32,000 bases of DNA from Pyrococcus furiosus DSM 3638 (GTDB lineage Archaea > Methanobacteriota_B > Thermococci > Thermococcales > Thermococcaceae): assembly GCF_000007305.1 (NCBI RefSeq), contig NC_003413.1:707318-739317 (forward strand). Reading direction: 5' to 3'. The first letter of the stretch is position 1. Each line of letters begins with the position of its first letter. Both the position numbers and the translations under genes were made by a program. Positions 21,377 to 25,277 of this stretch are shown here, piece by piece. The notes beneath the pieces were generated by a model that had not been told where the DNA came from, made no database searches, and saw only the letters and a program-made list of their open reading frames with translations.

Positions 21377-22285
21377 TTATAGTTTTTTGATGAAGTTGCT
21401 TTGCTGTAAAGCTGCATTGTTCACGATAAAAGCGCATATTTCGCTGATAGATGCCTCCCGGATCTCTTCGTTTTTGATCTTTGTAATATTGGAGAGGGCA
21501 TGGCGTTCTCCAACGACCGACACTCTTTCATTAATTGCCACTGTTACATTATGGTGGTTTTTCAGGATTTTCTTAATCTCTGAAAGTGACCCCATCTCTA
21601 TTGCATAAACATCCTTAAATGCCTGTTTCAGATTGTTGGGAGAATCTGCGTACAGTAGTTTTCCTTGATGTAGAATCAATATATAATCGGCTATCTCCTC
21701 AAGCCAGGTGGCCGTGTGAGATATGAGGAAAATGCTTTTACCTTTCTTTAAGGCATGATGAATTAGCTCCATAACCTTAATTCGCCCCCAAAAATCCAGC
21801 TCTTCGAATGGTTCGTCCAAAATATAAATGTCTCTGTCAGGTAGAAATGCAAGGAGTATTGACAGGCGCCTTTTTAAGCCTCCGCTTAAGTTTCCGACAA
21901 GAGTGTCCCTATACGGAGAGAGCCCCAGGTTATCCAATAACTCATTTGCCTTAGTGTCGGGTTCTCTAAAAAGCCTGGAATACAGTTCAACAATTTCCTG
22001 AACAGTTAAGGCATCCTCGACTATATTATCTTGGGGTAGGTATGATATCATTTGCCGGATTTCTCCTTTGTTTGAGTTTATTTCCTTTCCTTTTACCTTT
22101 ACATTCCCCTCGTCGTAGGGTAAAAGCGTACTGATTATCTTAGCCAAGGTGCTTTTCCCACTTCCGTTTTTACCAAGCAATATTATCAGTCCCGGAGGGG
22201 CTGAAAAGTTAATCCTGTCAAGAGCACGTGTTTTTCCAAATGTTTTTGTTAGTTCTTTGCACATAATGAGAGGTTCCCCCATCAT
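21377..22285 (-). CDS. ABC transporter ATP-binding protein with a C-terminal extension
   Basis: It has Walker A GKNGSGKST, a Q-loop YLPQD, signature LSGGLKRR and Walker B IYILDEP, then about 80 extra C-terminal residues. An ATGA overlap couples it to the upstream permease. Confidence 0.9.
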   Translation of the reverse strand: MMGEPLIMCKELTKTFGKTRALDRINFSAPPGLIILLGKNGSGKSTLAKIISTLLPYDEGNVKVKGKEINSNKGEIRQMISYLPQDNIVEDALTVQEIVELYSRLFREPDTKANELLDNLGLSPYRDTLVGNLSGGLKRRLSILLAFLPDRDIYILDEPFEELDFWGRIKVMELIHHALKKGKSIFLISHTATWLEEIADYILILHQGKLLYADSPNNLKQAFKDVYAIEMGSLSEIKKILKNHHNVTVAINERVSVVGERHALSNITKIKNEEIREASISEICAFIVNNAALQQSNFIKKL

Positions 22286-23397
22286 TCACACCTCCGCAGG
22301 AATACATACAAAAATATGAACGCAAAGGGAACTACCATTGGTCCAAAATATATCCCCAGGATCATTAGGATAGACGCCAGAAAGGGAAGCAATATTGAAT
22401 CTTTTCCGTAGTACTTTTTGAATTTCCTCAAGAGTGCTATACTGGAACCAAGAAATGACCACAATATCAACCTGAGGATAATTTTAGTGTTTATCCCGAC
22501 GGTAAATGGGGCGGTTATGATCATTGAAAACAGGGTGAACATTGATAAGGAAATAAAGAGTTTCCTAAAGTTTAAGAGTCTCAACGTATCTGCCACACTA
22601 ACACTACTAATCAAAAAAGATGGGAGAAGGTATCCAATAGTCATGTATATTATTTCAATTCTTTCAAGCCCTGAAATATATTTGTAAATAATGGGCGACA
22701 TAAGTATAGGGGCAGTTATAAAGGAGTACCTTACTGAGTAGCTCATAATGAGGGAAATCCACACCGGGGTTCCTTTAAAAAATTTTACTGGGATCATGAC
22801 TGGTCTCACACTTGGCTCCCTTCCTATAAATGTTAGGAATAGTATGGTAAGGGCCATGGTTGATAATGATATTAAGATGAGATTCTCAGTTTTAGGGATC
22901 CCCATAACCAACTCTGAAATACTTCCCGAATTCCCAACTATCAAGGATGTCTGAATCACCACAATCATTAGCAATATTATCGCAGGGATTAGACCAGAAA
23001 TCAGAAATACTCCAAACAGAAGGAAGCACGAATAAATTGTTGAGACAAGGCTCATATTCAGGATATCATTCACCGAGAATTCAAATCCACCAATAGCTAT
23101 CATAATGCCAGAAACTGAGAATACATAAAACATGGAGAAGGCAAAAAGCGCTGATATAATACCAAATTTTTCAAGATTGTAATATCTACCACCACAGGAG
23201 AATTTTCTTATCTGGTATAACGTAGAGTTGCATTCAATAACATATCCAATAACAAATACTGTGATGTATAAAATGAGTGGCTCGATTATAAATGGCGTTT
23301 TTGAAAGTATAGAGAAGAATAATGAAGAGCCCATCGCCAGCCCGTAGTATTTCATAAGCCTGTTAAAGTAATGAAGCAAGATAGAGTTAAAACACAT
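22282..23397 (-). CDS. Polytopic membrane protein, putative permease partner of the ABC ATPase
   Basis: 371 aa, about 10 TM segments, very AT-rich codon usage. It starts 3 nt after the radical SAM stop and overlaps the ATPase start by 4 nt. Confidence 0.7.
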   Translation of the reverse strand: MCFNSILLHYFNRLMKYYGLAMGSSLFFSILSKTPFIIEPLILYITVFVIGYVIECNSTLYQIRKFSCGGRYYNLEKFGIISALFAFSMFYVFSVSGIMIAIGGFEFSVNDILNMSLVSTIYSCFLLFGVFLISGLIPAIILLMIVVIQTSLIVGNSGSISELVMGIPKTENLILISLSTMALTILFLTFIGREPSVRPVMIPVKFFKGTPVWISLIMSYSVRYSFITAPILMSPIIYKYISGLERIEIIYMTIGYLLPSFLISSVSVADTLRLLNFRKLFISLSMFTLFSMIITAPFTVGINTKIILRLILWSFLGSSIALLRKFKKYYGKDSILLPFLASILMILGIYFGPMVVPFAFIFLYVFLRRCE

Positions 23398-23400
23398 CTG

Positions 23401-24470
23401 TCAGGGCCCCCTGTTACTTTCTGACATCCTTACTAGCTCTTCGACAAATTTTCTACTTTCATTGTACAGTACAGGGCTAGTGTTTATGTACAGGCAGATC
23501 TCACATATTGATGATACTCCGGGGGGAAGCGCAAATTTTCTGGACAGCTGGTGTACTAATCGCTCTGGATACCTCGTTAAAACATAAAGATAGGGATCAT
23601 TAACCATTTTTTCCACAATATCTGCAATATCCTCTTTGTACACGTTTCCATACTTAAGAAACTTTGACAGCTCACTGCCCGCACAGCAGGGTGTTACGTC
23701 CCCACTGCTTGTGATGGTTAAGTTCAGATTGTACCAGCACCCTCCTTGGAGTAACGGAGTAGGGCTTAAATATATTTCATCTTTTGGTATTCTCTCCCTG
23801 GCTCTTCCAATCCATGAGATTGGGGAGCTCGCTATTAAAAACCCCTCAATACTATCACCGAGCAATTTATATAGAAGATTCAACTTTTTTGTTTTTGTGG
23901 TTTGAACTCGTAGGATTGCCCCACTAACTAATTTCTCTTCCACTGTCTTTTTTAGGTTCTCAAGAACGTTTTTGTAATATTGTTTACCTAGACATTCAAC
24001 GTGGAAAGGGGTGATGGAAACTTCCACGTAGTCGGTGTACTCTAGTATCGGATCATAGAACTCTTTGTGTGTAAATAAATACCCATTAGTAACTATTTCA
24101 GTTTTGAACCCCAGCATTTTTGCAAATTTTAGAATCTTTATCAGATCCTCCTTGAAAGGGGGTAATGTTACTTCCCCACCTGCAATGCATACTTTCTTTT
24201 CGTTTAGATACCGGGTTAATGAGTGTGAAATCTTTTTTAGAACCGCTATGACTTTATCAACCTTGAGGGTCTGAGTTGTTTCAGGTGAACATGAGACGTA
24301 ACAGTGATTGCACTTAGCATTGCAACATCTGGTGTATTCAATGACTACACCATTAAACCTAACCTCTTTATAGGGCTTTGTGTCTGCATGGCGGGTTAAT
24401 GGTATTGTCTCACTTCTTTTTTTGTTTTTAATGTCCAGAAATGTGTGCCACCCCTGCTGGGAGGGAACAT
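23401..24470 (-). CDS. Radical SAM enzyme with a SPASM/twitch-like C-terminal domain; no in-frame start codon upstream of the catalytic motif
   Basis: The frame of tracked ORF 23401..24117 stays open upstream to about 24585. It contains VIEYTRCCNAKCNHCYVSCSPE (CxxxCxxC) and GGEVTL. The C-terminus has C-x11-G-x4-C (CWYNLNLTITSSGDVTPC) and CEIC. The only nearby ATG (24470) is in the +1 frame and joins through an A7 run at 24417-24423. Confidence 0.75.
24417..24423 (-). other. A AAA AAA (then G) slippery run that links the ATG at 24470 to the radical SAM frame by a -1 shift
   Basis: The minus strand reads aca aaa aaa gaa in the ATG frame. A -1 slip gives aga agt gag aca, which is the radical SAM frame. 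The zero frame stops 7 codons later. Confidence 0.4.
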
Positions 24471-24488
24471 GACAATAATCAAAAGGAT

Positions 24489-25049
24489 CTACGCTCCTCG
24501 ATATATACCAGTCCCACCGGGAAAGGAATAGATTAAAAAGCTCTTTTTTGCGTCGTTGCCCAATATCACAATCTGATTATATGAGCTGTTCAGGATATCG
24601 TTTTTTAAAATATCCCTTAGGTGTGGGTCTTTTCTGAGCAGAATGTTGCCCTCTCTGGAACCCGTCTGATGGAGAACAGATGAAAGCACTAAAGTTTTTT
24701 CAAGTAATTTATCCAAAACATCCTTATTCTCACACTTTAAATACACCCAGTAATCATATATCCAGGGACTAATGGGGGACAACAAGTCAAGCAACAAACT
24801 TCCCGCACTCTCAACGTCGGAATCTTTGAGGAGAGCCAGCCTATCATCGACAACAATTATGCAGGACTTTATTGAGCTTTTAGACATTGGAACCTTTGTC
24901 AGCCCAGACGTATTGATATGTGATTTCTCAATGAGCTGGTTAGAGTCTACTACAAGGTAGTCACTGTATTTCAAAACATCATAGTGCTCTTTGGGAAGAT
25001 TGAGCAGGGATCTTGGGCGGGAAATATAAAAGATTAAAAGGTCTTCCAT
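24489..25049 (-). CDS. Hypothetical protein (186 aa) of unknown function, second gene of the operon
   Basis: AGGTGA overlaps the stop codon of the upstream small ORF and lies 6 nt before the ATG at 25049. I see no recognisable motifs. Confidence 0.6.
   Translation of the reverse strand: MEDLLIFYISRPRSLLNLPKEHYDVLKYSDYLVVDSNQLIEKSHINTSGLTKVPMSKSSIKSCIIVVDDRLALLKDSDVESAGSLLLDLLSPISPWIYDYWVYLKCENKDVLDKLLEKTLVLSSVLHQTGSREGNILLRKDPHLRDILKNDILNSSYNQIVILGNDAKKSFLIYSFPGGTGIYRGA
24543..24549 (-). other. A AAA AAG heptamer in the zero frame of the upstream 186-aa gene; a -1 shift here also enters the radical SAM frame
   Basis: The minus strand reads gac gcA AAA AAG agc. The -1 frame from this point has no stop down to 23401. 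Confidence 0.35.
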
Positions 25050-25059
25050 CAATACTCAC

Positions 25060-25277
25060 CTATAACAACTTGTTTATTGGAGAAATCCCCTCAAAGGACA
25101 ATGCTTTTGTAGCCGCCGCTGCGAGTATTCCAGACACTATCCCAGCCGCAACACTCTTTACAAAAGATGTTGCCGCTGCCGCTTTGGCTGCTGCGACTAT
25201 GGCGGCAACAATAGCGTTGGGTTTAGATCCCGAAGGTGCCCCCACATTTCCTCCAAGTACATAGCAAACTCTTCCAT
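25060..25277 (-). CDS. Small Ala/Gly/Val-rich cationic peptide (candidate precursor or membrane-active peptide); the frame is ambiguous at its 5' end
   Basis: As sequenced, a GTG at 25245 opens a 61-aa ORF (MGAPSGSKPNAIVAAIVAAAKAAAATSFVKSVAAGIVSGILAAAATKALSFEGISPINKLL). A canonical GGTGAT + 4 nt + ATG at 25277 opens MEEFAMYLEEMWG, which joins the same ORF only by a -1 shift at a G5 run (25239-25243). Confidence 0.45.

Follow-up and report, generated by a model that had tools for sequence, protein, structure and literature searches.

Does the tightly packed block of minus-strand open reading frames (ORFs) at about 21377–25289 of a 32,000-nucleotide stretch of the Pyrococcus furiosus DSM 3638 genome (NC_003413.1, positions 707,318 to 739,317 of the forward strand; this whole stretch is referred to as the window) encode a working producer of a modified peptide? 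An earlier, sequence-only reading had described five minus-strand ORFs here, all of which are present in the ORF list, and had interpreted them as one operon for a small Ala-rich peptide, a separate protein, a radical S-adenosylmethionine (SAM) enzyme and an ATP-binding cassette (ABC) exporter, i.e. as a candidate system for a ribosomally synthesised and post-translationally modified peptide (RiPP). Comparison with related loci gives a different picture, since the supposed operon of five genes proves to be a cassette of four, disrupted by two deletions of a single G each. We consider it fairly probable that the locus is the decayed P. furiosus copy of a mobile archaeal epipeptide-like cassette, the intact copies of which epimerise and export a peptide. 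A short Cys-free precursor, a radical SAM/SPASM maturase and a dedicated ABC exporter remain from the RiPP-like unit proposed before; the gene number is reduced to four and this particular copy is broken.

The locus of a Thermococcaceae metagenome-assembled genome (MAG), termed L003, served as reference for the frameshifts. It is 99.7% identical to the window over 21224–25931, and within 21377–25289 it differs solely by two extra G. Frameshift site 1 (25239–25243, minus strand) is a run of five G in the window and of six G in intact relatives, and site 2 (24513–24515, minus strand) is GGG instead of GGGG. If one G is added at each site, the window yields exactly both L003 proteins, a 72-aa precursor starting at ATG 25277 and an enzyme of 549 aa. 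Hence, neither the precursor frame nor the maturase frame is uninterrupted in the window.

The deletion at site 1 cuts the conserved leader LAxYLExxWG from the Ala-rich core of the 72-aa precursor. The small ORF, previously taken for an intact gene, is therefore frameshifted too. Its leader sits in a remnant ORF at 25197–25289 (minus strand; ATG 25277, GGTGATC just 5' of it), which reads MEEFAMYLEEMWG and is out of frame thereafter, while the core-encoding part at 25060–25245 (minus strand) alone forms a 61-aa ORF starting from GTG. This part is rich in Ala, Val, Ile and Gly and, as stated earlier, free of Cys.

The deletion at site 2 splits the enzyme. Its N-terminal domain at 24489–25052 (minus strand, ATG 25049) is annotated as the 186-aa hypothetical protein PF0736 and had been listed as a gene of its own; it represents the first domain of the 549-aa enzyme, cut by the 1-nt deletion, and the last eight residues of PF0736 are out-of-frame read-through. 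The radical SAM catalytic reading frame (23401–24576, minus strand) contains the motifs CNAKCNHC (24301–24324), C-x11-G-x4-CC (23683–23739) and CEIC (23494–23505), so that the C-x11-G-x4-C motif noted before is indeed present besides CNAKCNHC. This frame is open from 24576 and has no ATG, GTG or TTG before 24117, i.e. its first canonical start lies downstream of the CxxxCxxC motif. The 356-aa radical SAM ORF of the sequence-only reading cannot be maintained, because the proposed ATG (24470), 18 nt after the preceding stop, is out of frame and opens an ORF of 24 codons.

The orthologue from Thermococcus celericrescens (WP_245610376.1), with a 76-aa ORF upstream of its gene, comprises 549 aa (97% identity), and four divergent relatives (32–47% identity) have 535–565 aa and the same two-domain layout. 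We therefore take the long form of the enzyme to be ancestral. Altogether, the 535–565-aa architecture is kept in P0001–P0004 and P0007 at 32–97% identity, and an intact metagenome variant at 86% identity (L107) reads through the frameshift site. Since precursor and maturase are both frameshifted, the P. furiosus copy is probably a pseudogenised producer locus and not a working producer. Two inactivating indels stand against zero substitutions over 3.9 kb of coding sequence in the comparison with L003, which argues for a very recent inactivation. The event may have taken place within the lineage of the cultured strain. The non-coding flank at 25290–25937 differs from L003 by six substitutions and an indel of 5 nt over a length of about 640 nt, in contrast to the coding block with no substitutions; the cassette core thus appears to have been shared more recently than the upstream flank, or the flank is evolving unusually fast.

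What, then, would the intact enzyme do? The assignment as radical SAM/SPASM enzyme holds in hidden Markov model searches, in which Pfam Radical_SAM (PF04055) scores 48.5 bits (cut-off 29.5 bits) and SPASM (PF13186) 25.6 bits (cut-off 21.5 bits), with C-x11-G-x4-C satisfying the pattern CX9-15GX4C. These scores likewise support the current RefSeq label "radical SAM/SPASM domain-containing protein" of the P. furiosus and T. celericrescens genes. Within NCBIfam, TIGR04078 (YydG/EpeE radical SAM peptide epimerase) is matched with E = 1e-29 and 104 bits over model positions 2–292 of 309, and the next family follows at 9e-17, covering the core only. A sequence search of the PDB returned YydG (8AI1–8AI6) at 2e-28 and the next match at 5e-4. 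When the AlphaFold model of the T. celericrescens protein (predicted local distance difference test, pLDDT, 62) was used for Foldseek, the nine best matches were all EpeE. EpeE (YydG) belongs to the epipeptide system epeXEPAB (yydFGHIJ) of Bacillus subtilis and other Bacillota, and its full length is homologous to the catalytic domain of the cassette enzyme.

The residues of EpeE that matter for catalysis are largely retained. C14, C18 and C21 of EpeE align with the CxxxCxxC of the archaeal enzyme, C222, C289 and C292 align with the invariant C455, C516 and C519, and C206 is one alignment column off the invariant C438. This pattern suggests a single auxiliary [4Fe-4S] cluster with these Cys residues as putative ligands. 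In the alignment, EpeE C223 corresponds to the second of the two Cys in the invariant TPCCAGSE motif (Cys456 of the 549-aa protein), so that the hydrogen-donor position is occupied as well; Cys223 has been shown to be the hydrogen donor that completes the stereoinversion in EpeE (PMC8326336, PMC13012085). Among the chemistries listed in the sequence-only reading, homology points to epimerisation, with EpeE/YydG as by far the closest family. We infer that epimerisation of core residues would be the most parsimonious chemistry, with Asn in place of one Asp as a known deviation.

The precursors of the different lineages have 72–84 aa and align at 33–40% identity. In the motif LAxYLExxWG the Trp is invariant and Leu and Gly are nearly so (12 sequences), and several positions of the core are also conserved across lineages. 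The precursor body contains 22–31% Ala, none of the 12 sequences has a Cys, the net charge is about 0 and the amphipathicity is moderate. Neither NCBIfam nor Pfam gave a match for the precursors, including NHLP/Nif11-type leader models, and the precursor profile search found nine clusters. The N-terminal domain of about 225 aa is absent from EpeE and has no Pfam or NCBIfam match; its profile, searched against 1.84 billion representatives, retrieved four matches, all of them members of the cassette enzyme family. A Foldseek search of its model against the PDB gave nothing significant (best E = 0.019, template modelling score 0.24–0.33, weak TIM-barrel-like proteins). Since EpeE is devoid of such a domain and the archaeal precursors carry a strongly conserved leader motif, the domain could be a leader-docking module.

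The remaining two genes are intact. The presumed ABC permease (22282–23397, minus strand) is a polytopic protein of 371 aa from an orphan family; it matches no Pfam or NCBIfam family, and a profile search finds only cassette members. The 302-aa ABC ATPase (21377–22285, minus strand) is matched by ABC_tran (PF00005) at 1.5e-28 and by TIGR01188 at 1.7e-47, the latter below its cut-off, and by these matches it would be an ordinary exporter ATPase of the DrrA/ABC-2 type. Its ORF is encoded identically in P. furiosus COM1 (CP003685.1) and in several other assemblies.

Outside P. furiosus the cassette is rare and its order is conserved. A small ORF (72–84 aa), the enzyme, a 368–396-aa membrane protein and a 302–309-aa ABC ATPase follow each other in at least five divergent archaeal lineages, namely L003, T. 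celericrescens (L014), an Archaeoglobaceae MAG (L009/L015) and the metagenome lineages L007 and L095. In L012, the sixth lineage, small ORF and enzyme are accompanied by a membrane protein of only 99 aa. In all of them the small ORF lies directly upstream of the enzyme gene. Hence, the linkage of radical SAM homologues to a small ORF and a transporter, on which the earlier proposal depended, exists across lineages, and the small ORF, which is conserved, is in every case linked to the enzyme gene. The cassette is limited to a handful of Thermococcaceae and Archaeoglobaceae lineages. A scan of genome contigs found mostly generic radical SAM genes and one true relative, the Archaeoglobaceae MAG, and among viral contigs only generic radical SAM genes were found, with no sign of a viral carrier. 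The metagenome scan added L107 and L109 and nothing else close. L109 (OBEQ011606562.1) encodes at 1504–2514 a stand-alone 336-aa radical SAM protein with the family-specific LNLTI...PCCAGS motifs and no fused N-terminal domain, preceded by an overlapping 443-aa ORF without assigned function. In evolution this protein may stand between EpeE and the archaeal family. The context of P0005 turned out to be a different, PqqD-linked system and is uninformative for the cassette.

Intact copies appear to be maintained by selection. Between L003 and T. celericrescens the ratios of nonsynonymous to synonymous substitution rates (dN/dS) amount to 0.24 (enzyme), 0.21 (permease) and 0.33 (ATPase), and the intact copies are therefore under purifying selection. 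Nevertheless, at least three losses of the producer genes have occurred. In P. furiosus the two frameshifts stand beside intact transporter genes. In L005, from the L003 lineage, a clean deletion of 1,845 bp (window 23441–25285) takes out the precursor gene together with almost the entire enzyme gene and fuses the upstream region to intact permease and ATPase genes. In the third case, an Archaeoglobus sp. keeps the precursor beside a frameshifted, truncated remnant of the N-terminal domain. The Bacillus epipeptide system is understood as a toxin with an ABC export/immunity pump (PMC7026026, PMC8326336). By analogy, retention of the pump after loss of the producer genes in P. furiosus and L005 would fit a role in export and immunity and a toxin-like product.

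For the mobility of the cassette, comparison between genera is informative. Besides the cassette, the transferred island contains downstream remains of another ABC system and the tail end of a gene for a P-type ATPase; it spans 19609–25937 and shares 94–97% DNA identity with T. celericrescens (blastn against L014; cassette about 97%). In L003 the flanks are only 81–84% identical to the window in contrast to 99.7% for the cassette. A near-identical cassette between diverged flanks indicates a recent exchange between genera. Thus, the horizontal acquisition proposed earlier is supported by the cross-genus identity, but the argument from AT-richness is wrong for P. furiosus. The block had been described as the most AT-rich part of the window with 37–38% G+C. 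In fact it has 39.9%, positions 13501–14000 have 34.4%, and much of the window lies at 40–43%. The P. furiosus genome has about 41% G+C. Composition was accordingly rejected as evidence for an island in P. furiosus, as the cassette matches its host. In other genomes cassette and flanks do differ, with 0.39–0.45 versus 0.51–0.58 G+C in T. celericrescens, 0.26–0.30 versus 0.45–0.53 in L012 and 0.33–0.38 versus 0.40–0.48 in L009. Within the window, the blocks of 52–58% G+C at 1–7000 and 16500–20000, and not the cassette, are the compositional outliers for a host of about 41%; the window otherwise has about 40–43%. One of these GC-rich blocks includes a part (19609–20488) that shares 97% identity with T. 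celericrescens. Terminal repeats, direct or inverted, were sought at both ends of the island, and the matches did not exceed chance level.

How does the cassette relate to known systems? Its operon logic is that of the Bacillus epipeptide locus, in which a small precursor and a radical SAM enzyme are accompanied by an ABC transporter of two components, here with a presumed permease. The Cys residues of the radical SAM motif, the auxiliary-cluster set and the hydrogen donor Cys223 are kept, and the precursor is likewise Cys-free with a Val/Ile-rich core. Epipeptides have been described as restricted to Bacillota (PMC13012085). The cassette, in contrast, is archaeal. Its enzyme carries the additional N-terminal domain of an orphan family and Asn instead of Asp210, its precursor is unrelated to EpeX and longer, an EpeP/YydH-type protease is missing, and the permease family is an orphan. 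Of the transporter pair, the ATPase is recognisable as an ABC ATPase (PF00005, 1.5e-28), whereas the partner membrane protein matches no known permease family. The proteusin epimerases PoyD and OspD convert L- to D-residues at Val/Ile/Ala-type positions by radical SAM chemistry with a Cys hydrogen donor (PMC8326336). In contrast to PoyD-type enzymes, which are without auxiliary cluster, the cassette enzyme has the auxiliary Cys set of the EpeE type, and its precursors lack an NHLP/Nif11 match; the cassette therefore does not belong to the proteusins. In Thermococcus, a 2026 preprint reports subtilosin-like sboA-albA-albC clusters that join a radical SAM RiPP to an ABC component and were apparently acquired horizontally (bioRxiv 10.64898/2026.07.27.741052). 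That system uses a Cys-containing SboA homologue and the sactisynthase AlbA, while the cassette enzyme matches AlbA at 2.9e-7 in the core only. A sactipeptide, ranthipeptide or subtilosin-like reading was rejected because of this weak AlbA match and the Cys-free precursors (0 of 12 with Cys). A literature search found no paper describing the cassette, and locus-tag searches gave only a TrmBL1 paper using chromatin immunoprecipitation with sequencing (ChIP-seq) for PF0735/PF0736. The cassette is thus a rare, essentially undescribed archaeal variant of an epipeptide-like RiPP system with a predicted epimerase chemistry.

For intact copies we propose the following sequence of events. The N-terminal domain would dock the conserved leader, and the catalytic domain would abstract a Cα hydrogen from core residues by means of the 5'-deoxyadenosyl radical. 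Cys456, corresponding to Cys223 of EpeE, would return a hydrogen to the opposite face and thereby generate D-residues. The ABC pump may export a membrane-active product, protect the producer, or both. In P. furiosus the product would no longer be made, and the retained transporter may serve as immunity. A more far-reaching proposal can only be put forward tentatively, and we regard it as possible without favouring it. The intact members in T. celericrescens and in Thermococcaceae and Archaeoglobaceae MAGs might make the first archaeal ribosomal peptide with D-amino acids, an "archaeal epipeptide" active at hyperthermophilic temperatures, using the N-terminal domain for leader recognition and Asn in place of the Asp relay. 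Pump-only genotypes might then be immunity-only "cheaters" in hydrothermal communities.

Several points weigh against the epipeptide-like interpretation. The 104 bits obtained with TIGR04078 are a third of the equivalog cut-off of 300 bits. Because the score is so far below this value, the enzyme is to be classified, as judged by its sequence, as a distant EpeE/YydG relative outside the TIGR04078 equivalog. Epimerisation itself rests on homology at about 19–20% identity. Asp210 of EpeE, the proposed proton relay that regenerates Cys223 (PMC13012085), aligns with Asn443, which is invariant in all five archaeal sequences; the structure of the EpeE D210A mutant is available as 8AI6. In BLASTP the precursor gave no alignment with YydF/EpeX. 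The cassettes examined contain no leader protease, neither as a fifth gene nor as a protease domain. The proposed docking role of the N-terminal domain is a guess, and its model, an alternating β/α fold, is of moderate confidence (pLDDT 62–68). The role of the transporter in export or immunity is suggested by its context. Of the losses, L005 is a single metagenome contig, and all frameshifted sequences may come from one cultured lineage, DSM 3638 and its derivative COM1.

Some of these points also feed competing explanations. If the intact enzyme performed another radical modification of the Ala/Val/Ile-rich core, such as C–C cross-linking, a cyclopropylglycine-type reaction, desaturation or backbone cleavage, then the score far below the YydG equivalog cut-off, the exchange of Asp210 to Asn, the extra N-terminal domain and the unrelated precursor would all be readily understood, the more so as radical SAM/SPASM enzymes are notoriously divergent in chemistry (PMC8326336). 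We nevertheless judge this rather unlikely, because EpeE is the sole close relative among solved or curated enzymes, separated from the others by more than 10 orders of magnitude in E-value, because the PCC motif with the hydrogen-donor Cys is invariant, and because Cys-free precursors rule out thioether chemistry. It is more doubtful still that the cassette is no weapon, with a peptide that acts as a signal, as an accessory to a membrane protein or as a cofactor precursor, and an ABC system that moves something else. The patchy, mobile and compositionally foreign distribution and the repeated loss of producer genes with the pump kept are typical of bacteriocin-like loci, and the characterised system closest to it produces a membrane-perturbing toxin and has an ABC pump (PMC7026026, PMC8326336). 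In favour of this alternative, the net charge of the precursors is about 0, their amphipathicity is only moderate, and an immunity protein or protease is not recognisable.

Two further explanations would rescue the P. furiosus locus itself. An intact, co-translated five-gene operon that makes and exports a modified peptide, i.e. an archaeocin, could account for the tight packing of ORFs with Shine-Dalgarno-like motifs, the intact transporter genes, the GTG-initiated 61-aa ORF with GGAGG upstream and the regulator-binding site reported upstream (PMC4706686). It is, however, very improbable, given that the radical SAM ATG is out of frame with no canonical start before CxxxCxxC, that every divergent homologue is a single protein of 535–565 aa, and that the conserved leader is frameshifted off the core. 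Marginally less credible again is a bypass of the G-run frameshifts by ribosomal or transcriptional slippage, which would leave the locus functional or phase-variable. Here the runs are short (G5 and G3), the site in the radical SAM gene (GGU GGG A) does not allow re-pairing after a –1 slip, a stimulatory element was neither sought nor seen, and independent decay in other lineages fits plain gene loss. These arguments outweigh the location of both indels in G-runs, the lack of substitutions in the 3.9-kb coding block in comparison with L003, and the fact that a –1 P-site slip of tRNA-Gly on GGGGG would restore exactly the intact precursor sequence. Consequently, we retain the decayed copy of an epipeptide-like cassette as the preferred explanation.

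If this explanation is true, epipeptide-type epimerisation and peptide warfare extend to Archaea and to temperatures near 100 °C, and peptide systems of the EpeE type, previously thought to be confined to Bacillota, would include an archaeal cassette with a precursor family of its own and with a fused domain and a permease family that are both new. Since P. furiosus COM1 is genetically tractable, direct experiments on the locus are possible. The annotation is affected as well. RefSeq recognises neither the frameshifts and the fused N-terminal domain nor the precursor gene, and the kinship with EpeE is likewise missed. PF0736 and the "radical SAM/SPASM" models starting at ATT are pieces of one pseudogene, and the precursor gene is unannotated. 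Such ATT starts follow, by coordinate arithmetic, for the two RefSeq models with 387 and 313 aa. The 186-aa product corresponds to the deposited PF0736 (PFDSM3638_03660) and is found in three independent P. furiosus genome records. On the plus strand, an 83-aa ORF at 25013–25264 lies antisense to the precursor gene and reflects its richness in Ala, as GCN codons appear in the opposite strand as NGC, and the COM1 annotation has a 64-aa plus-strand gene in place of the precursor gene. A gene call opposite the precursor is probably an annotation artefact.

The gene junctions described in the sequence-only reading were for the most part recovered. The stop codon TAG of the small ORF overlaps AGGTGA, 7 nt before ATG 25049, the radical SAM stop (23401–23403) is separated by 3 nt from the permease ATG at 23397, and permease and ATPase genes overlap by ATGA at 22282–22285. 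The AT-rich region upstream of the precursor (25290–25420, minus strand), which is kept intact in the deletion variant L005, is presumably the promoter of the cassette. A TrmBL1 site found by ChIP-seq has been reported upstream of the PF0735/PF0736 operon, with the genes listed as "hypothetical" (PMC4706686). A search for the TrmBL1 TGM motif near the presumed promoter gave chance-level matches only.

Gene debris had been claimed on both sides of the block. On the downstream side this is clear, where a 49-aa ORF is truncated, an ABC ATPase carries internal damage and a P-type ATPase is represented by its tail, while on the upstream side it is only arguable. Three pieces make up the debris of the second ABC system (19890–21343, minus strand): the 49-aa ORF, whose L003 counterpart has 96 aa, a membrane fragment of 91 aa, and an ABC ATPase of 249 aa with a Pfam match split in two stretches. 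At the same position L003 has an intact ATPase and two ABC2_membrane_6 permeases. At 21073, within the debris, the window differs by a 1-nt indel (one G) from P. furiosus COM1 and three other assemblies, which suggests strain-level or sequencing differences between P. furiosus records. A 55-aa ORF at 19638–19805 (plus strand) lies where L014 has an intact gene for a 720-aa E1-E2 (P-type) ATPase and is apparently what remains of the C-terminal end of such a gene; therefore, the island seems to have arrived as a fragment of a Thermococcus-like arrangement. Upstream, a 44-aa ORF with a SHOCT domain (25892–26026, plus strand; E = 3.8e-11) matches the C-terminal portion of a T. celericrescens SHOCT/DUF1707 protein of 102 aa and may be truncated.

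Elsewhere in the window, a 250-aa ORF at 10677–11429 (plus strand) belongs to the heliorhodopsin family, with a full-length match to PF18761 (E = 1.9e-97, 325.8 bits). Its last helix contains a Lys (..FVSKTILVWQ..). A protein of the heliorhodopsin family is odd in an anaerobic hyperthermophile of dark sediments.

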